Shown here one piece after another: positions 21,415-30,653 of a stretch of DNA of 64,000 nucleotides. The stretch comes from Dehalococcoidia bacterium. Its GTDB lineage: Bacteria > Chloroflexota > Dehalococcoidia > Lucifugimonadales > UBA3495. The notes under the pieces were generated by a model. That model worked only from the letters and a program-made list of their open reading frames with translations, was not told where the DNA came from and searched no databases. A program made the translations under genes and the position numbers. Within the stretch, counting starts at the first letter, position 1, and each line of letters begins with the position of its first letter. The DNA is taken from contig DAOUIF010000078.1 of assembly GCA_034423575.1 (NCBI GenBank), forward strand, positions 3,865 to 67,864. Direction: 5' to 3'.

Positions 21415-23733
21415 TTGGCCGGGCTTCCTCGTTATCGAGGATTTGGGCAGCCGACGATGCTGGTATCATGGGGCCAACCTCACCCGGACCCAGTTTCACC
21501 AGCCATGGCAACGGCGCATACTTACACGCCTGAAGGGCACCGCCTGGACGCGTTCCTGGTGGGAATGTACGCCGGCCATCCCGATGCCCAGGGATTGCCC
21601 TCAGCCCGAAGAGTGGCGGCGATTGCTGCTGAACTTCTCGAGTCTTGCGACTTGGATCTCGATGCGACGGTGGTGAACACTGCGGCTCTACTGCATCTGG
21701 TGGGCCGTCCGAATGATCCGGACCGTGCGGACGGGTCGGTTGGACTGGGTGTTGCATGGCTGCGTGGTGCGGGGGCGCCAGAACCATACGTGGCGGCGGT
21801 AGCGAGGGCGATCGCGGGAGCTTTGTCGGAAGCTCCTGTGCTCGATCTCGATTTTCGGCAAGACGACAACGGCAAGTTGCTGCGGGACGCCGCGCTGCTG
21901 GACTTGGCGAGCGTTGAAAGGCATTCCGATTACTTGCGAGACGTGCCGCCGCCCGGACGGCTTCGGGAGACATACCTGGCGGAATATCGCCGCGAGTGCT
22001 TGACGCCGGCGTTGCAGTTGCGCGGCATGTTGACTCTGCCGGCGGCGTTGGAAATGTATTCCCAGCGCATACCCAAATTGTCGGCGTGGCTGGATGAACA
22101 GCCGGCCAATTTGGTCCCATCGGATTGGCGGCGCCTGGTGGAAGTGGCGGAGATCGAGAGCGGGGTGGACAGGTTGCTGGCCGGCGAAGATCCGGCGGCG
22201 GTTCGGGCCGAAATGCCCGCCGGGGGGCTGCCCTACGCGGAGTATCGGGGGCGGCAGCGGGCCATCATTGCCGGGAGTCACGACCGGATCCTGGGACTGA
22301 CCCATGCTCGCATTGAGGCGTCGCGCAACGTGGCCGCGGAAAAATACCTGGAAAGCGACACGATTCACAAGCCGGCGGTGGAGGAAAACCTGTTCGTCGG
22401 CGCGCGTCGTCGGGCCCGGCAATTGGGCTTGTCTGCGGAGACGGCGGAGGACATCGCCAGGCTGTTGCTTTCCAACGCCCGCGAGGCGCAGGAGCGGACC
22501 CTCAACGACATTGCCCAGCGTTTGAGCCGGTTGCACGGCCAGATCCTGGATGCGGAATCGCCGGAATCTCGCACCGACGAGGCTGACATAGCGATCCCTT
22601 CCCTGGTGGTTCGCACCGGGGACCAGCCGCTGGCCCGCGAGAACGAACTGATCAAGGAGCTGCGCGTCACCGGGCTGAATGAGGCCTACCCGGAACAGAG
22701 ACGCCGGTTCATGGAGTGGTTCGACCCGCCGCATCCCTACATGGAAACCGGGATGACGGTGGGCAGCAGGGACGCTGACATCTTCATGCAGTCGCTGATT
22801 GACGGCCAGCGGTGCAAGGTCGTGACGACGGTCGCCATCGACGGGCCGCCGCACTTGGGCCATGGGACTATCGCCAGCATGCTGGCGCATTTTCAGACAA
22901 TGGGCGCGGAGGTGACCATCGGTTTTCGCGACGAACTTGGCGATCTCGAAGAGGCGCGGCAATTGATGCACGACCACCTGTCAGCTATGGCAGCCAGCGA
23001 CCTGAATCTGGAGCGTGTCGACGCCTACCTGCAGCAGGACAGTCCCTCGATCGTAAGGACGGCGTTTGAACTGGGCGAGGCCATCCCGCTGAGCGTGTTG
23101 AACTCGGCGCTCGGACTCCGGTTGCGGGACAGCGCAACCGACACCTTCCGGCCGCTCCTGCGGCTGGCCGACATTCTGCACTTACAGCAACAGGAATGTG
23201 GCGGCCCTTGTAGGACACTGGTCCTCGACGGCATCGGCGGCGATGTGTACGTGCGCATGGCGCGCAACGTGGCCGATCGGTTCGGGTTCCTCAAGTCGTC
23301 TGCTTTGTATCTGCGCCCGTTGCGAAATCTGACCACCTACGAAGACCCGCGGACCGGCGACGCGGTGGAGGTCATGACCAATCGGGTCCCGCCCGGCCGC
23401 ATCACGTATAACGACGATCCGGCCGAGATCCGGCGACGCATCGGCCGGGCATACACCGGTGGCCGCGGCACGCTGGAAGAGCAGCGGGAGAAAGGTGGCA
23501 ACCCCGATCCGAGGGTCTGCTCAGTGTCCAGTCTGCACGCCTTTTACACCACGCCGGACCCGAAGGAGTACGGAGAGTTGCAAACGCGGTGCCGTGCGGG
23601 CGAGTTGCTGTGTGGGGATTGCAAGGCGTACGCGGCAGACCGCCTGCTAGAATATTTCGACCGGCATCGGCGCGAACGGGAGGGGATCTCCGACGAGAGG
23701 GACGCCCGGCCCGGTTTCCTAGCCGGCGCGTAA
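21415..23733 (+). CDS. three-module fusion: degenerate HD-like + chorismate-mutase-like + TrpRS-like (HLGH present, KMSKS replaced by VMTNR)
   Basis: See findings. The start is uncertain (TTG 21415, ATG 21457 or ATG 21505). The gene is 24 nt upstream of trpS on the same strand. Confidence 0.6.
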   Translation: MAGLPRYRGFGQPTMLVSWGQPHPDPVSPAMATAHTYTPEGHRLDAFLVGMYAGHPDAQGLPSARRVAAIAAELLESCDLDLDATVVNTAALLHLVGRPNDPDRADGSVGLGVAWLRGAGAPEPYVAAVARAIAGALSEAPVLDLDFRQDDNGKLLRDAALLDLASVERHSDYLRDVPPPGRLRETYLAEYRRECLTPALQLRGMLTLPAALEMYSQRIPKLSAWLDEQPANLVPSDWRRLVEVAEIESGVDRLLAGEDPAAVRAEMPAGGLPYAEYRGRQRAIIAGSHDRILGLTHARIEASRNVAAEKYLESDTIHKPAVEENLFVGARRRARQLGLSAETAEDIARLLLSNAREAQERTLNDIAQRLSRLHGQILDAESPESRTDEADIAIPSLVVRTGDQPLARENELIKELRVTGLNEAYPEQRRRFMEWFDPPHPYMETGMTVGSRDADIFMQSLIDGQRCKVVTTVAIDGPPHLGHGTIASMLAHFQTMGAEVTIGFRDELGDLEEARQLMHDHLSAMAASDLNLERVDAYLQQDSPSIVRTAFELGEAIPLSVLNSALGLRLRDSATDTFRPLLRLADILHLQQQECGGPCRTLVLDGIGGDVYVRMARNVADRFGFLKSSALYLRPLRNLTTYEDPRTGDAVEVMTNRVPPGRITYNDDPAEIRRRIGRAYTGGRGTLEEQREKGGNPDPRVCSVSSLHAFYTTPDPKEYGELQTRCRAGELLCGDCKAYAADRLLEYFDRHRREREGISDERDARPGFLAGA

Positions 23734-23757: not shown

Positions 23758-24774
23758 ATGGCAAACCAGCAACGAATTTTGACCGGCATGCGACCCACCG
23801 GGCAGTTGCATTTGGGGCACTACCTGGGTGCCCTGGAAAACTGGATACAGATGCAGCACGAGTACGAGTGCTTTTTCCTCATTGCCGACTACCAGGCGAT
23901 GGGGGATCACCTGGACGACATCGGTCTGATCCAGCGTTCCGTACTCGAGGTCGCCACCGACTGGCTGGCCGTGGGCCTGGACCCCGAGAAGTCGGCCTTC
24001 GTGATTCAGAGCTATGTGCCGGAGCACGCCGAACTGACCATGTTTTTCTCCATGCTCATGCCGTTGAACCAGCACCAGCGGAACCCGACACTGCGGGCCG
24101 AGACGGCGCAACTGGAAGCGGAAAACCAGTCCATCACCCTGGGGTTTTTCAACTATCCCATCAGCCAGGCCGCCGACATCCTGCTGCCCAAGGCCCACCT
24201 GGTGCCGGTAGGGGAGGACCAGGTGGCGCACATCGAGTACACGCGCGACGTTGCCCGGCGGTTCAACCGTCTGTACGGCGAGGTGTTCCCGATCCCCCGA
24301 GCCAGGGTGGGGCGCGTGCCCCGATTGGTCGGTACCGACGGCCAGGCCAAAATGAGCAAGAGCCTGAATAACGCCATCTACCTGGCCGACGGCCCGGAAG
24401 CAGTGGAGGACCGGGTGCGACGGATGGTCACCGACGTAACCGGCGAAAATCCCCGATTGCGGGCCACGGATCCGGGCGTTGTGGAATACAATCCTGCGTT
24501 TCTGTACCACGACGCGTTCAACGATAACGCCGACGAGGTGGCGGAGCTCAAGGAGCGGTACACCGCCGGAACGGTGAGCGACCGCGAGGTAAAGGAACGC
24601 CTCACGGCCGCGCTCAACCAGTTCCTGGAGCCGATCCGCGAGAAGCGGTCTTGGTATGAGGAACATCCGGATTTCGTGCGCGACGTACTGAAGGAGGGTA
24701 CAGAGCGGGAACGGGCAATCGCGCAGCAGACCATCGAGGACGTTCGCCAGGCGATGCAGGTGGTTTACACCTGA
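23758..24774 (+). CDS. trpS: tryptophan--tRNA ligase
   Basis: 338 aa with TGQLHLGH (HIGH) and KMSKS both present; GGGAGG upstream. Confidence 0.95.
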   Translation: MANQQRILTGMRPTGQLHLGHYLGALENWIQMQHEYECFFLIADYQAMGDHLDDIGLIQRSVLEVATDWLAVGLDPEKSAFVIQSYVPEHAELTMFFSMLMPLNQHQRNPTLRAETAQLEAENQSITLGFFNYPISQAADILLPKAHLVPVGEDQVAHIEYTRDVARRFNRLYGEVFPIPRARVGRVPRLVGTDGQAKMSKSLNNAIYLADGPEAVEDRVRRMVTDVTGENPRLRATDPGVVEYNPAFLYHDAFNDNADEVAELKERYTAGTVSDREVKERLTAALNQFLEPIREKRSWYEEHPDFVRDVLKEGTERERAIAQQTIEDVRQAMQVVYT

Positions 24775-24823
24775 CCACAGGCTATGGGGCGGCGCTGACT
24801 CGAAAGGACTACCGACCTAAAAC

Positions 24824-24853
24824 GGGGCAACCGCAGGGTTGCCCCTTGTTTTG
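24824..24853 (+). terminator. rho-independent terminator of trpS
   Basis: GGGGCAACC, GCAG loop, GGTTGCCCC (perfect 9-bp stem) followed by TTGTTTTG. Confidence 0.85.
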
Positions 24854-24932
24854 TCACCGTGTTAGCGTAACTCGACTGCGCCAGGCGCTCCGCCTAGCGC
24901 TTTCTTACTCGTTGCCAAACCGGAGGGATGAC

Positions 24933-24960
24933 ATGGCAGGCAATCCGCGAGACAAATATT
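24933..24960 (+). pseudogene. severed 5' end (SD, ATG and 9 codons) of the thiolase gene whose body resumes at 27843
   Basis: GGAGGG (24922-24927), 5 nt, then ATG GCA GGC AAT CCG CGA GAC AAA TAT T. Joined to 27843 onward it reads MAGNPRDKYCIVGVGETEY in frame with ORF 27854..29044. Confidence 0.75.
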
Positions 24961-24987
24961 GGGGAATTACCGGGATAAGTTGACAAA
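24953..24987. repeat. left target duplication (CAAATATT) plus left terminal inverted repeat of the transposon
   Basis: 24955-24987 AATATTGGGGAATTACCGGGATAAGTTGACAAA matches the reverse complement of 27810-27842 at 30 of 33 positions (hand count). Confidence 0.8.
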
Positions 24988-25008
24988 GTAGCGTTCCGCC
25001 GGTAGCAT
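24980..25008 (+). promoter_or_regulatory. inward-facing promoter in the left IR driving the MTase-HNH gene (leaderless geometry)
   Basis: TTGACA (24980-24985), 17 nt, TAGCAT (25003-25008), then 6 nt to the ATG at 25015. Confidence 0.55.
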
Positions 25009-25014
25009 CGCCGC

Positions 25015-26587
25015 ATGGCTGCCGCTACCCGAAATTTCGCCAATCGTACCCTTTTTCACGGCGATAATCTACCCTTCCTGCGGGGCATGAACTCCGGGAC
25101 GGTCAACCTCATCGCCACCGATCCGCCGTTCAACAAGAACAAGGACTTCCATTCCACCCCGAACAGCCTGGCCAGCGGCGCCCGCTTCGTTGACCGCTGG
25201 GCATGGGAGCGCGACGTTCACCAGGATTGGGTTGACGCCATCAAAGACGACTGGCCCGGCGTCTGGCAGGCCATTGAGAACGGGCGGGTCAACCACTCGG
25301 AGGGCATGGCTGCGTTCCTGTGCTGGCTCGGCATCCGGCTGATTGAGTGCCGGCGCGTGCTGGCCGACGACGGCAGCCTGTACCTGCACATCGACCACAC
25401 CGCCCACGCCTACGCGAAGTGCCTGCTTGACGCCATCTTTGGCCGACGCAACTTTCGGAACGCGATTGCATGGCAGCGCAATGATGGCCGGGGCAAGGGC
25501 AGTCAGCACAACCCGAAATCATGGGGGTCGAATACTGACATCCTACTGTTTTATGCCAAGTCTGAGCGGGGGGGTAAAACCGTTCCGGGAACTCACCGCC
25601 GAAGAAGTGGAGGCGAAATTTCCGCGCACTGATGAAAACGGCCAGCGTTTCTATGCAGGGATCCCCGTGTTTTGTTCGCAGTCAATGGGGGCACGCCCCA
25701 ACCTCTGCTTTGAGTGGCGCGGGTTCCGCAATCCGCATCCGAGCGGTTGGCGGTTGAGCAAGGAGCGTCTGGAAGAGGAGTACCAGAAAGGCAACGTCGT
25801 AATCCGACCTGACGGCAAGTTGGAACGGCGCAAGTATCTTGACGACTATGAGGGCATCCCTGTTGATGATTTTTGGGGAGACATCCCGCGCTTGACGGAT
25901 GGCAACGAGCGTTCCGGCTACCCAACGCAGAAACCCCTTGCGTTGTACGAGCGGGTCATCGCGGCCAGCAGTAACCCCGGCGATCTGGTGCTGGACCCGT
26001 TCGCGGGCTGCGCCACCACGCCGGTAGCGGCGGAGCGGCTGGGCCGGCAGTGGGTCGGCATGGACATTTGGGACGGGGCGATTGACGAGGTGCGCCGCCG
26101 CATGGCGGATAGCCGCCAGTTGCTCACCGACGCCAACCCCCAGATCATCTATGCCACCATCCCGCCGGAGCGCACCGACGGCGACGACGGCGACGACGAC
26201 GGCCCCGAGGTTCCCGACCTGGTGCTGCGCCCGCAACGTCAGCCGGAACGCTGGGAACGGCTGTCCCACGCCGAAATGCGGGATATTCTGGCGACTGCCC
26301 AGGCCAACGGAGATAGCGTCGTTTGCGCCGGTTGCGGGATACAGCTGCCCGTGCGCTACATGGAGCTGGACCATATCACGCCGCGCAAGGACGGCGGCGA
26401 GAACGTCATCACCAACCGGATACTGCTGTGCGGGCCGTGCAATGGGGCGAAGTCCGCCAACCTCACGCTGTCGGGGCTGGTGCGGCACAACCGGCGGTTG
26501 GGATTTGAAGTAGATAGGGGCTTGGCGGAACTGGCCGCCAGCCGAGCGCGGGACGCTGCCCAGCGTTGCCGGGATACGATACGCTGA
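25015..26587 (+). pseudogene. beta-class N6-adenine/N4-cytosine DNA methyltransferase fused to a C-terminal HNH endonuclease domain; frameshifted at a G7 run
   Basis: DPPF (motif IV) precedes VLDPFAGCATT (motif I). YPTQKP is present, and the HNH signature reads CAGCG...DHITPRKDGGE...NRILLCGPCNGAKS. ORFs 25015..25632 and 25343..26587 meet at GGGGGGG (25568-25574). Confidence 0.85.
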
Positions 26588-26791
26588 CTACTCTTTGATC
26601 TTCTCCACCCACCAAGCGGCGATGTAGGTGTCGCCGCCAATCTTGCCGACGATTTCGCCGTCGGCCATTTTCAGGGTAAAGGCGCTGCCCTCCTGCTCCA
26701 TATCATCGGCCCTGATACGGATGACGGAAGGCCACTGCCCGGATGATTTTGCGTCCATCTGGAAGCAGTAGAACTTGTTGACGATGGTCAT
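26588..26791 (-). CDS. 67-aa hypothetical protein (transposon passenger)
   Basis: ATG ORF starting 4 nt after the transposase stop. Its stop abuts the MTase stop with a 0-nt gap. No motif recognised. Confidence 0.45.
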   Translation of the reverse strand: MTIVNKFYCFQMDAKSSGQWPSVIRIRADDMEQEGSAFTLKMADGEIVGKIGGDTYIAAWWVEKIKE

Positions 26792-26795
26792 ATCC

Positions 26796-27758
26796 CTACA
26801 CCCAACCGAATTGCCCGGTGCGGCTCATGCCATTATCGGCGGTGAGGTCGGCGTAGGTCAACCTCTTGCCGATGCAACCGCGCACCAACGCAGCCATTTG
26901 GTCGAGCGTGTCGCTGGGCCGTTTGTTGAACCGGCCCTCGAACTCGGCTACGTAGCGGTCAAGATGCTTGACCGACATCCAGTGATAAATCCCGGTGTAG
27001 CCGCGCTTGAGCAATGCCCAGAACGATTCCATCCCGTTGGTGTGCGCCATGCCCTTGACGAACTCGCCCACGGAGTGCGTAACCGTTTCGTGCCGGCGGT
27101 TGAGCCGGTTAAACACCCGCGCTTCATCGGTGAATACCAGGGTAGTCGGCTCCGTGCGCTGGTGAACGAACTGCCGCATGGTGGGGCCGTCTTCGTGCTC
27201 AATGACTTTGGCGTCCACCTTGCCAGTTTCGCGGTCTTTGACGCCGGCCACCGGGGTTTTGCCGACTGCGCCGCGCCCCTGGTGCTTGCGCTTGGATTCG
27301 TGCTTGTTCTTCTCAACGCCACCGATGAACGTCGTATCGGATTCCACCGGGCCGGAGAAGACCGGATCGTCGCCAGCCATCGCCGCGCGGATACGATGTC
27401 CCATGTGCCAGGCCGAACCCTGGTGTATGCCCAGGTCGCGGGCCAGTTTGGTAGAGCTGACGCCCTTCAGGTTGGTGCAAATCTGATAGAACGCGATAGC
27501 CCACTTGCGGAGCGGGATTTTCGAGGATTGCATCACGGTTCCGAACTTCACGGAGAAATACTTGCGGCAATCGGAGCACCAGTAGGGCATCGGCTCGGCG
27601 TTGGGAACTTCGCTGGTGTTTTCGCCGTCGCAGCGGGCGCAGACGCGGCCATTGGGCCAGCGGATGGACTCAAACCACGTCTGGGCAGCATCATCGTCCG
27701 GGAACATCTCGAACAGGTCAATCAGGGTAATGCCCTTGCGAAAACTCTTACCGGCCAT
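26796..27758 (-). CDS. IS1595-family (ISXO2-like DDE) transposase
   Basis: N-terminal zinc ribbon CARCDG...CSDCRKYF, then VESDTTFIGG, VFTDEARVFNRL and HTNGMESFWALLKRG...HLDRYVAEFEGRFNKR. Confidence 0.92.
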   Translation of the reverse strand: MAGKSFRKGITLIDLFEMFPDDDAAQTWFESIRWPNGRVCARCDGENTSEVPNAEPMPYWCSDCRKYFSVKFGTVMQSSKIPLRKWAIAFYQICTNLKGVSSTKLARDLGIHQGSAWHMGHRIRAAMAGDDPVFSGPVESDTTFIGGVEKNKHESKRKHQGRGAVGKTPVAGVKDRETGKVDAKVIEHEDGPTMRQFVHQRTEPTTLVFTDEARVFNRLNRRHETVTHSVGEFVKGMAHTNGMESFWALLKRGYTGIYHWMSVKHLDRYVAEFEGRFNKRPSDTLDQMAALVRGCIGKRLTYADLTADNGMSRTGQFGWV

Positions 27759-27788
27759 AGCGATTCACCATCCTTGATTGCTGGGATG

Positions 27789-27817
27789 ATGATAGCAGGC
27801 TAGGGCGGGTTTGTCAA
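27789..27817 (-). promoter_or_regulatory. inward-facing promoter in the right IR driving the transposase
   Basis: Minus strand: TTGACA (27817-27812), 17 nt, TATCAT (27794-27789), about 30 nt upstream of the ATG at 27758. Confidence 0.55.
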
Positions 27818-27842
27818 GTTATCGCGGTAATTCCCAAATATT
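27810..27842. repeat. right terminal inverted repeat plus right target duplication (CAAATATT)
   Basis: Reverse complement AATATTTGGGAATTACCGCGATAACTTGACAAA. See 24953-24987. Confidence 0.8.
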
Positions 27843-29044
27843 GCATCGTTGGGGTGGGCGAAACCGAGTACAGCCGGGCCTCGGGACGCACCACCCGCGC
27901 CCTGGGCGCCGAGGCGATCCGCAACGCCATGAACGACGCCGGCCTGACGCCCGACCAGGTGGACGGGATGCTCAGCTACCACGGCGGCGACTCCACGCCG
28001 TCGACGTCGATACAGTACGACCTGGGCATCCGGCCGAATTTCTACATGGACTGCTCCGGCGGCGGGTCTTCCACGGAGGCGCTGGTGGGTTTGGCCATCG
28101 GTGCGATCGAGGCGGGGATGTGCGACGTGGTGGCGATTTTCCGATCGATGAACGGCTACTCCAACGTGCGCATCGGAGGCACCGGCGCGCGGGCGTCGGC
28201 TCCCATCGGCGGGCTGGACCTGATGAAGCGGCCCTACGGCCTGATCAGCGCCGTGCAGCAATTCGCCTACACCTTCACGCGCCACATGGCCGAGTACGGG
28301 GTCAAGAGCGAAGATCTGGCGGCCATCAAGGTGGCTCACTCCATTCACGCCTCCAATAACCCCAAAGCGCTGATGAAGCACCGGGTGACCGTGGACGACG
28401 TGATTAACTCCCGGTGGATCATCCGGCCGGTGGCCCACCTGTTGGACTGCTGCCTGGAAACCGATAACGCCACCTGCGTCATCGTCACTTCCGCCGAGCG
28501 GGCCCAAGACCTGAAGCACAATCCGATCTACATCAAAGGAGTGCAGGGTCGCGGCACCAAGCCCGGCGGCGACTTCCACTACCAACACGGGCCGATCTCG
28601 CGGGTGGCCGGCCACTATATCGCGCCGCGCATTTTCGATCTGGCCGGCGTAAAGCATGAGGACGTTGACATCACCGGCTGCTATGACGCCTTCACCTACA
28701 CCGTGTTGCTGCAGTTCGAGGACTACGGCTGGTGCGAGAAGGGCGAGGGCAAGGACTACGTGACCAGCGGCATCATCAACCTGGGTGGCAAGCGGCCCAA
28801 CAACCTCAGCGGCGGGCACCTCTGCGAGGGGTACACGCACGGGATGAACATGGTGATCGAGAACGTGCGACAGCTACGGGGCACTGTCGATGACTACTGC
28901 CCGGGCGCTTTGGAAGGCGACCACACCTACGAGTACGCCGAGGGAGGCTGCCGCCAGGTGAAGGATGCCAAGATCAGCATGAACATGGGTTGGGGGACGC
29001 CGGCCGTCGGCAGCGCGCTCATCATGGGCAACGTGCTCAGCTGA
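27843..29044 (+). pseudogene. thiolase-like protein (SCP-x / DUF35-associated type), body of a gene decapitated by the transposon
   Basis: ...IVGVGETEYSRASGRTTRALGAEAIRNAMNDAGL...; followed by its usual DUF35 partner. There is no SD or canonical start upstream of GTG 27854. Confidence 0.75.
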
Positions 29045-29072
29045 ACTCTGGACGATTACTAAGACTATTAGG

Positions 29073-29145
29073 CCCGCTCACGGTGAGCCTGCCGAACCAT
29101 AGTCGGCGCAAAAGGAACGTCCTTCGACGGGCTCAGGACGAGCGG
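29073..29145. repeat. ~70-bp imperfect palindromic intergenic element, copy 1
   Basis: CCCGCTCACGGTGAGCCTGCCGAACCATA...CCTTCGACGGGCTCAGGACGAGCGG. The arms match copy 2 at 39394-39464 and are inverted relative to each other. Confidence 0.8.
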
Positions 29146-29163
29146 ACATGATGGAGTAACACA

Positions 29164-29676
29164 ATGCCGAACTACACCTACCGGGGCATCACGCTGAGCA
29201 TCCCCGAGAACGATTCTGAGTACAAGGGCTATTTTGGAGCCGCTGCTGAAGGCCGCCTCGTGGTCAAGAAGTGCGCCGACTGCGGGTTGCTGCGCGGCGA
29301 ACCGGGGCCGGGGTGCCCATGGTGCACGTCATTGAACTGGGAGTGGCAACAGGTGTCAGGGAAAGGCACCATCTACTCGTATCAGGTGGTGGCGCACACG
29401 GTAATTCCCAGCTTCCGGGACCTGACCCCCTTCGCCATCGTCCTGGTGGAACTGGACGAGCAGAAGGGACAGCCTGCGGAGTTCGATGGCCTGCGCATGA
29501 CCGGCAATCTGGTGGACGCAGACTTCAACATGGAGAAGGAAGAGAACGTCGGTATCGGCAAGCGGGTGGAAGCGGTCTTCCAGCCGGTGGAAGATGGGTT
29601 CATGCTGCCACAGTGGCGTCTCATCGACGAGCCGGACCAGGGATTCACCTGGGCCCACCAGGTTCCGGAAGGATAA
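29164..29676 (+). CDS. Zn-ribbon/OB-fold protein (DUF35), thiolase partner
   Basis: CADCG...CPWC zinc ribbon followed by an OB-fold region; adjacent to the thiolase. Confidence 0.85.
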   Translation: MPNYTYRGITLSIPENDSEYKGYFGAAAEGRLVVKKCADCGLLRGEPGPGCPWCTSLNWEWQQVSGKGTIYSYQVVAHTVIPSFRDLTPFAIVLVELDEQKGQPAEFDGLRMTGNLVDADFNMEKEENVGIGKRVEAVFQPVEDGFMLPQWRLIDEPDQGFTWAHQVPEG

Positions 29677-29696
29677 AACGGCGCATTCGGCCAAAC

Positions 29697-30653
29697 GTGT
29701 CCACCATCCGCGACTACACCGACGATGACCTGCCGGCGCTGCTGGATTTCGCGCTTCGTCAGTTGGAAAGCCGGGACGACTCCGTTGCCACGGTCTGGCG
29801 CGGCATATTCGCGGACACATTGCGCTTGCCCGGCCGAGATCCCCGCCGCGACTGCATCCTGCTGTTTGAGAGGTCAACACTACGAGGGTTCTGCCTGATA
29901 TTCCCGGAGACATCCGGCCACCGCAGTGTGTTGAATATAGACACGGAGGACTCCGCAGGCGCCGCGGAGGAATACCGGGCGCTGGTGCGGGCCGGTGTCG
30001 GGCGGGCGGGCGCGGCAGGTGCCGCCGTGGCCCATATCATGCTGGCGCCGCCGCACACCCGCGCCGCAGTCCTGGATGCGGAAGGCTTTGTCATGGCGCG
30101 GTCCTACTGGGATATGACGTGGAGCGGGGAGCCATTGCCGGATGCTGATCTGCCATGCGGATACCATATCCGCCCTTTCAGTGAGCGCGATGTATCCGCC
30201 TTAACCGCAACACATAACGCCACCTTTGCCGACTCCTGGCAGTTTTCGCCGGATACGGAAGCGATGGTCGCGCACCGCTCACAGATGGCGAATACCGCCA
30301 ACGAGGGCATACGGCTGTTGTTTTATGGCGGTGAGCTGGCCGGATATTGCTGGACACTGCTGGTTTCCGACGGACGAAGCCGGCATGGCGTCATTGGTTC
30401 CATGGGGCTGACGCCCGGGTTCCGGGGCCACGGCCTTAGCAAACCGCTTCTGAGGTCGGGGATAGCCTACCTGGTGTCCGCAGGAGCCGACCGGATTCGT
30501 CTGGAAGTTGACGCCGAAAACACGCCGGCGGTGCGGCTGTATCGGTCAATGGGATTTGCCAAAACCGGCGAACTGCGCTGGTACGAGAAACGAACCGAGC
30601 CCAGCTCGTCGGCGGCATCGGCGTCAACGACCAACCTCGAGAGCGGTCATTGA
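29697..30653 (+). CDS. tandem GNAT-domain N-acetyltransferase (MshD-like architecture)
   Basis: GTG start at 29697 (VSTIRDYTDDDLPALL). The second domain reads ...GFRGHGLSKPLL...VDAENTPAVRLYRSMGF. The upstream part of the 460-aa ORF overlaps DUF35 out of frame. Confidence 0.8.
   Translation: MSTIRDYTDDDLPALLDFALRQLESRDDSVATVWRGIFADTLRLPGRDPRRDCILLFERSTLRGFCLIFPETSGHRSVLNIDTEDSAGAAEEYRALVRAGVGRAGAAGAAVAHIMLAPPHTRAAVLDAEGFVMARSYWDMTWSGEPLPDADLPCGYHIRPFSERDVSALTATHNATFADSWQFSPDTEAMVAHRSQMANTANEGIRLLFYGGELAGYCWTLLVSDGRSRHGVIGSMGLTPGFRGHGLSKPLLRSGIAYLVSAGADRIRLEVDAENTPAVRLYRSMGFAKTGELRWYEKRTEPSSSAASASTTNLESGH

Follow-up and report, generated by a model that had tools for sequence, protein, structure and literature searches.

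We identified, in a 64-kb stretch of DNA (hereafter the window) from an uncultured, Dehalococcoidia-like member of the Chloroflexota, a complete insertion sequence (IS) of the IS1595 family that carries passenger genes and has, with a probability that we put at about 0.92, inserted near the start of a thiolase gene, at its 5' end. The DNA of the window belongs to contig Ga0131736_1000022 of the JGI metagenome 3300009935. The ends of the element, the duplication of its target, the empty site in a relative, a second copy elsewhere and the family membership were directly established, as described below.

The longest inverted pair of the region (24955-24987 and 27810-27842) has a length of 33 nt with 91% complementarity (30/33) and was found at exactly the coordinates given in the initial annotation of this DNA. 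The terminal inverted repeats proper are 26 nt long, start with GGGAATTACC... and are identical between the two ends at 24 of 26 positions; their core, GGGAATTACCG[G/C]GATAA[G/C]TTGACAAA, has two occurrences in the window (24962-24987 on the plus strand and 27810-27835 on the minus strand), the chance expectation being zero (100 shuffles). An exact scan of metagenome contigs for the 26-nt end gave zero matches, the source contig itself being unmatched too. The 8-nt direct repeat initially annotated, CAAATATT, is present at 24953-24960 and 27835-27842 and is extendable to 9 nt (CAAATATTG); however, its register was 1 nt off, because the termini are fixed as GGGAATTA.../...TAATTCCC by the second copy and sister elements, not by the window alone. 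In the resulting register, the element comprises 2,874 bp and the true target-site duplication is AAATATTG (Table 1). The excision product is identical in either register.

Excision of 24962-27843 gives a 1,230-nt open reading frame (ORF) encoding 409 amino acid residues (aa) and starting with MAGNPRDKYCIVGVGETEYSR..., and the reading frame rebuilt in the initial annotation was correct. Almost all of the 120 best homologues of this thiolase start with M-x(2-5)-[DG]KY[CA]IVG[VI]GETEYSR and nearly all have 405-409 aa, and the first 25 residues (MAGNPRDKYCIVGVGETEYSRASGR) are identical in 9 of the 12 members with 409 aa that are listed for its 90%-identity cluster; the N-termini of homologous thiolases, a comparison that had been proposed as a test of the interruption, thus resemble the rebuilt one. 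In an exact look-up of the rebuilt protein, no identical uninterrupted allele was found in the collection, the nearest being P0371 of the same cluster, with 98.3% identity overall. The search for uninterrupted alleles in relatives, also suggested earlier, was successful at the P0371 locus (L107), where the site reads GAGACAAATATTGCATCGT with AAATATTG present once, and in a more distant relative (L001), which aligns across the junction free of gaps. The L107 locus is syntenic with the window (hydrolase, 731-aa protein, tryptophanyl-tRNA synthetase (TrpRS), an extra 240-aa gene, thiolase, DUF35 and acetyltransferase). Comparison of the rebuilt thiolase with L107 gave a ratio of nonsynonymous to synonymous substitution rates (dN/dS) of 0.021 and showed no disruption. 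The insertion is recent relative to the divergence from L107, because the remnant (27844-29044) has no internal stop or frameshift and the protein is 98.3% identical to the intact orthologue.

Since the window comes from a metagenome contig, the element might have been mis-joined into the thiolase locus as a repeat during assembly, the real genome having an intact gene. The second copy is at contig ends in all assemblies, showing that the element acts as an assembly-breaking repeat elsewhere. We consider such an artefact highly improbable, because the same junctions occur in an independent assembly from a different run (L003; 99.98% identical, 1 mismatch in 6,118 bp) and the truncated 396-aa thiolase product is also encoded on an 82-kb NCBI contig. 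Moreover, the perfect 8-bp duplication lies exactly at the termini, which a chimera would not generate, and the element ends are those of a single copy in the window. A paralogue search by tblastn detected no second copy of the thiolase, the DUF35 gene or the transposase in the window.

The insertion by a transporter IS would be explained as follows. We infer that both strands of AAATATTG, which lies nine codons into the thiolase gene, were cut in a staggered manner by the DDE transposase, and that repair of the gaps duplicated these 8 bp. The transposase gene, a 67-aa ORF and a methyltransferase-HNH gene move together between the two GGGAATTACC... ends, and the insertion has parted the promoter, ribosome-binding site, ATG and nine codons from the body of the thiolase gene. 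Although the knockout of a gene by an IS is routine biology, the case is a clean worked example from public data; from these data one can retrieve the ends, the duplication, the near-isogenic empty site and also the second copy, so that the element could be named and entered in IS catalogues, in which the phylum Chloroflexota is poorly covered.

Table 1. Features of the element and of the interrupted locus (coordinates in the window)
Feature	Coordinates	Strand	Remarks
Orphaned thiolase 5' end	24922..24961	+	Shine-Dalgarno (SD)-like GGAGGG 24922-24927, ATG 24933, 9 codons MAGNPRDKY
Target-site duplication, left copy AAATATTG	24954..24961		Once only in the L107 empty site
Complete IS1595-family transporter IS	24962..27835		2,874 bp; inverted ends, other copies
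Left terminal inverted repeat GGGAATTACCGGGATAAGTTGACAAA	24962..24987	+	Holds -35-like TTGACA of inward promoter-like site 24980-25008
Beta-class N6/N4 DNA methyltransferase with C-terminal HNH nuclease (fusion)	25015..26587	+	PF01555, PF01844, PF14279; 523 aa repaired
Poly-G tract G7, breaks the methyltransferase-HNH frame	25568..25574	+	G6, G9 or G12 in frame
67-aa ORF	26588..26791	-	Starts 4 nt after the transposase stop
IS1595-family DDE transposase, 320 aa, N-terminal zinc ribbon	26796..27758	-	Pfam, NCBIfam
Sigma-70-like promoter site for the transposase	27789..27817	-	TTGACA, 17 nt, TATCAT; 11/12 matches
Right terminal inverted repeat GGGAATTACCGCGATAACTTGACAAA	27810..27835	-	Second-copy homology ends exactly at 27835
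Target-site duplication, right copy AAATATTG	27836..27843		Direct repeat; sister-element register
Decapitated SCP2-type thiolase body	27844..29044	+	First possible start GTG 27854 (396 aa), no SD at normal spacing
DUF35/ChsH2-type OB-fold partner gene	29164..29676	+	Own GGAG upstream

Family membership and related elements

The IS1595-family assignment made in the initial annotation agrees with all three profile matches of the transposase, i.e., Pfam PF12762 (DDE_Tnp_IS1595; E = 1.6e-34, 119.6 bits with a cut-off of 27), PF12760 (Zn_ribbon_IS1595; 31.2 bits with a cut-off of 25.4, residues 20-66) and NCBIfam NF033547 (transpos_IS1595; 172 bits with a cut-off of 75). Among the annotated IS1595 transposases borne by plasmids, none exceeds 42% identity to it. 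The family has been described as having an 8-bp duplication, a zinc finger with a DDE domain and a terminal GG, the zinc-ribbon N-terminus being found in all groups but IS1016 (PMC8101967), and its target repeats as AT-rich and 8 bp long (PMC12561309). According to PMC11891212, the category of 'transporter IS' (tIS), a passenger-carrying IS, was defined in the IS1595 paper of Siguier et al. 2009, with elements of the ISNwi1/ISPna2/ISNha5 type as examples with passenger genes; the paper of Siguier et al. is cited in PMC3467074 among examples of IS-associated restriction-modification genes.

The element has the DDE domain, the zinc ribbon, the 8-bp duplication and the short inverted repeats starting with GG that mark the family, and it has passenger genes between its ends, with the same three genes at another genomic location. 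It is therefore a further member of a previously known type of mobile DNA, the transporter IS, which it resembles in its transposase with the zinc ribbon, its GG-starting short inverted repeats, its AT-rich 8-bp duplication and its internal passengers, and from which it differs in its uncultured chloroflexotal host and in the passengers themselves, one being a methyltransferase-HNH fusion that contains a poly-G tract and the other an orphan 67-aa ORF.

The second copy (L004, L099-L104) is 92.9% identical and shares the GGGAATTACC termini and all three genes with the element of the window; it is located beside the gene for a 1,255-aa fn3 protein in a Chloroflexota metagenome-assembled genome (MAG) from GTDB (JAPPCX010000001.1) and in five other assemblies. 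Sister elements (L006-L014, L110-L115), whose transposases are 75-78% identical to that of the window, are present in two assembled genomes of Chloroflexota, each of which has four to five copies. All of the sister copies with an intact transposase-side end begin with GGGAATTA upstream of the transposase, with unrelated flanks beyond, the sole exception being L008, in which this end has been replaced by another IS. In L008 (3460-7927), a sister IS1595-HNH element was hit by an IS630-like (DDE_3) insertion, giving a total of 4,468 bp. Perfect AT-rich 8-bp duplications were found in six of nine sister copies (AAAACTAA, TATTATAA, AAATATTA, CAAGATAA, TTTCGTAA and TTAGTATA). These, together with the published features, fit the 8 bp initially quoted as the duplication length of the family, and the inspection of other copies, which had been recommended to fix the ends, placed the second copy and the duplications of the sister elements at the same termini. 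The terminal motif is GGGAATTAC in the window and GGGAATTAT in the sister elements.

The sister elements share with the element of the window the GGGAATTA...TTGACA termini, the transposase promoter embedded in the end, the 8-bp duplications and a small ORF right after the transposase gene, whereas their cargo is different and consists of a standalone HNH protein of 129-138 aa, of a PF02384 methyltransferase of 802 aa, or of no more than an ORF of 87 aa. The small ORFs of the sister elements have no homology to the 67-aa one. More distant relatives on metagenome contigs (42-58% identical) have GGG(G/A)ATTAT ends, lengths of 1.3-4.9 kb and 8-bp duplications, and several of them carry a methyltransferase-HNH or methyltransferase gene, namely L025 (2,670 bp, AACGTGCC), L057 and L050 (3,013 bp, AATGTTTT). 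Because such genes were found in the sister elements and in several of the distant relatives, DNA-modification and nuclease genes are recurrent passengers of this IS clade.

Some observations weigh against the interpretation given above. The second copy has no target-site duplication (GTTCTCAA versus CAATTATT), and therefore gives no independent confirmation of the 8 bp. In addition, placement in the ISNwi1-type subgroup, whose terminal consensus in ISfinder, 'ggnnatTAT', is matched by the ends of the element, is tentative. The missing duplication of the second copy is likely due to a later rearrangement. Note that the transposase-side flank of the second copy resembles the 3' end of another transposase gene, which suggests a nested or rearranged IS cluster, and that all six contigs of the second copy break 40-141 nt from the transposase end.

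Effect on the thiolase and its partner gene

The thiolase matches PF22691 (Thiolase_C_1; E = 1e-27) and the next gene matches PF01796 and PF12172; this thiolase-DUF35 pairing is also present in L001 and L107. Among solved structures, the thiolase matched 6OK1_A (E = 7e-63) and 4U4E (E = 4e-61) from residue 8-10 on, and also 7PXP. Proteins of the thiolase fold with DUF35 partners are known from 6OK1 ('lipid-transfer protein'), 7PXP (benzoylsuccinyl-CoA thiolase) and 6ESQ/6ET9 (acetoacetyl-CoA thiolase), and the arrangement in the window, a thiolase gene followed by that of a ChsH2-type OB-fold/zinc-ribbon protein, is similar to these, although the sequence identity to them is modest. From the Cys in its MDCSGGG segment, to which no Cys is aligned in 6OK1, the protein may be not an aldolase but a thiolase in the strict sense.

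The insertion deprived this gene of its promoter, its ribosome-binding site, its ATG, the first nine codons and the conserved CIVGV first beta-strand. The frame of the 5' stub now continues into the element as far as a TGA (24981-24983) inside the left repeat, giving a 16-aa peptide (MAGNPRDKYWGITGIS). On the other side, the stretch from the stop at 27758-27760 to GTG 27854 contains no in-frame ATG, GTG or TTG; inspection of the frames bore out what had been noted earlier, that a usable start is lacking upstream of the remnant. Since the remnant has neither a ribosome-binding site nor the CIVGV strand, the thiolase is probably non-functional, and loss of function, the enzyme being either not made or not folded, is the most likely outcome predicted from the sequence. 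Of the silencing proposed in the initial annotation, the loss of the start, the SD sequence and the N-terminal strand stands, and there is no outward promoter-like site; the silencing itself stays an expectation from these losses. The DUF35 partner gene was probably co-transcribed with the thiolase gene and has probably lost its promoter in spite of its own GGAG, and may be under-transcribed.

On the other side of the argument, read-through from the thiolase promoter or from the left-end promoter across the element could deliver transcripts to the remnant, and GTG 27854 may allow low-level translation. The insertion would then not be a knockout at all: a 396-aa thiolase would be made from GTG 27854 by read-through or from a cryptic outward promoter, and the event would be neutral or regulatory. 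The remnant ORF is in fact intact and without decay, the gene for the methyltransferase is oriented toward it, as is the native promoter of the thiolase, and no terminator-like site is found on the plus strand of the element. Nevertheless, the GGGG that abuts GTG 27854 is too near to act as a normal SD sequence, and read-through must traverse the convergently transcribed transposase and 67-aa genes. Sigma-70-like sites facing inward are found at both ends of the element (27817-27789 for the transposase, with its -35 inside the right inverted repeat and with the site conserved in the sister elements, and 24980-25008 for the methyltransferase), whereas no outward-facing promoter-like site was found at the element ends. 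Moreover, the missing CIVGV strand is kept by the 120 homologues with few exceptions, and residues 10-14 of the rebuilt thiolase, within the lost N-terminus, align to the start of 6OK1 and 4U4E. A still functional gene is thus improbable, and disruption of the thiolase remains the preferred interpretation. An Rfam scan of 24000-30000 (E <= 1) gave no match, so that no known RNA element was detected at the ends or junctions. Note that automatic annotation gives this thiolase a length of 396 aa and divides the methylase between two genes, which misleads metabolic and restriction-modification inventories of MAGs.

Passenger genes and the poly-G tract

Between the ends of the element there are three genes, for the methyltransferase-HNH fusion on the plus strand and for the 67-aa ORF and the transposase on the minus strand. 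The initial annotation had correctly described a three-gene cargo element without mentioning that the methyltransferase-HNH gene is split in the window by a +1 frameshift into two overlapping ORFs (25015-25632 and 25343-26587). The frame is broken at a G7 run, and removal of one G from this run restores a methyltransferase-HNH protein of 523 aa. PADLOC identified the methyltransferase as MTase_II (E = 7e-55), grouped with the Type II/III beta-class enzymes. Intact methyltransferase-HNH fusions are very common, and the three closest ones inspected lie outside IS elements.

In the comparison between the window and the second copy, the dN/dS values of the two halves of the methyltransferase-HNH gene were 0.058 and 0.081 (dS about 0.3). 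Because these values match that of the transposase (0.053), the gene has evidently been under purifying selection. In the six assemblies of the second copy (L099-L104), the run is G12, which leaves the frame intact, or G13 or G14, which are out of frame; in L099 and L102, G12 gives an intact protein of 522 aa (...SERGGGVKPF...). The 2.87 kb of these six assemblies are identical except for the G-run and two substitutions in L102. Homologous methyltransferase-HNH proteins have no Gly run here, the position being in a variable loop, and the run is therefore specific to this lineage. Programmed recoding, considered for the 3n+1 phase shared by G7 and G13, was dropped since the in-frame G12 and also G14 were found.

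These observations make the poly-G run look like the phase-variable tract of a candidate contingency locus. Phase-variable methyltransferases with simple-sequence repeats (phasevarions) are known for Type III mod and Type I hsd genes (PMC5909438, PMC7383803). The likeness to these systems would be that a homopolymer in a methyltransferase ORF varies in length and shifts the frame among otherwise identical sequences; the difference is that in the window the methyltransferase is of the Type II-like beta class, is joined to HNH and is carried by an IS in a non-pathogen. The methyltransferase-HNH gene has been kept functional in the long term, yet contains a slippery G-run, which as the G7 here puts the gene out of frame.

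This view has to be weighed against the possibility that the gene is a dead pseudogene, or that the differences in the G-run are noise, and that there is no phase variation. The run lengths were read from consensus assemblies, and short-read assembly often errs at long G homopolymers, so that the differences could be homopolymer sequencing or assembly noise; in the window, the G7 run is shorter and more stable, and it is OFF in both assemblies. On the other hand, both gene halves are as constrained as the transposase, which would be unexpected of a gene that was dead during most of the time since the copies diverged, and the in-frame G12 with its intact protein occurs in two assemblies. Among five of the six assemblies, moreover, the G-run is the sole variable site in 2.87 kb, and the Gly run is lineage-specific and falls in a variable loop. 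We regard a dead gene or noise as somewhat unlikely, though a possibility of real weight.

As for the wider meaning of phase variation in a mobile element, we offer only tentatively, as a proposal with rather less than even support, that this Chloroflexota IS1595 clade would be a shuttle for solitary DNA-modification and nuclease genes, in which the methyltransferase-HNH gene would be a mobile module for epigenetic or restriction functions, switched by its poly-G tract, in an uncultured bacterium of the symbiont type and not in a pathogen. If the G-run does switch, a DNA methyltransferase-nuclease spreads by transposition and toggles stochastically; phase-variable methylation would then reach beyond host-adapted pathogens, and methylation would be linked to IS mobility. 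The possibly phase-variable cargo is the more interesting part of the finding than the disruption of the thiolase gene.

Within 25003-25017, the ATG of the methyltransferase gene (25015) lies 6 nt past the -10-like TAGCAT of the left-end promoter-like site, and the cargo methyltransferase mRNA may be leaderless. For the 67-aa ORF, no match was found in Pfam, NCBIfam, PADLOC or PHROGs and no relatives were detectable, and no homologue was found beside standalone methyltransferase-HNH genes. In the second copy, this ORF encodes the identical protein and differs very little in its DNA. A single-sequence AlphaFold model predicted an all-beta protein with low confidence (pLDDT 58). A conserved module outside IS elements, composed of a methyltransferase-HNH gene and a small convergent ORF, was considered and rejected, the small ORFs beside P0241 and P0245 being unrelated in sequence.

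The convergent genes meet stop codon to stop codon (TGA/CTA, 26585-26590). A stretch of about 273 nt (26541-26813), which runs from the 3' end of the methyltransferase-HNH gene across the entire 67-aa ORF into the 3' end of the transposase gene, has one difference between the element copies versus about 7% elsewhere (dS 0.026 versus about 0.3). Either gene conversion or constraint at the nucleotide level would account for this near-identity.

Neighbouring genes

The extra 240-aa gene of L107 lies between the TrpRS and thiolase genes and is absent from the window (window 24774-24933 compared with L107 4126-5000), where the TrpRS-thiolase spacer is 158 nt long and has a terminator-like hairpin (24824-24845). 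Directly upstream of the TrpRS gene, a 772-aa ORF (21415-23733) has only a faint match to tRNA-synt_1b, and its orthologue in L107 has a weak chorismate-mutase match; this ORF may encode a TrpRS-related fusion protein.

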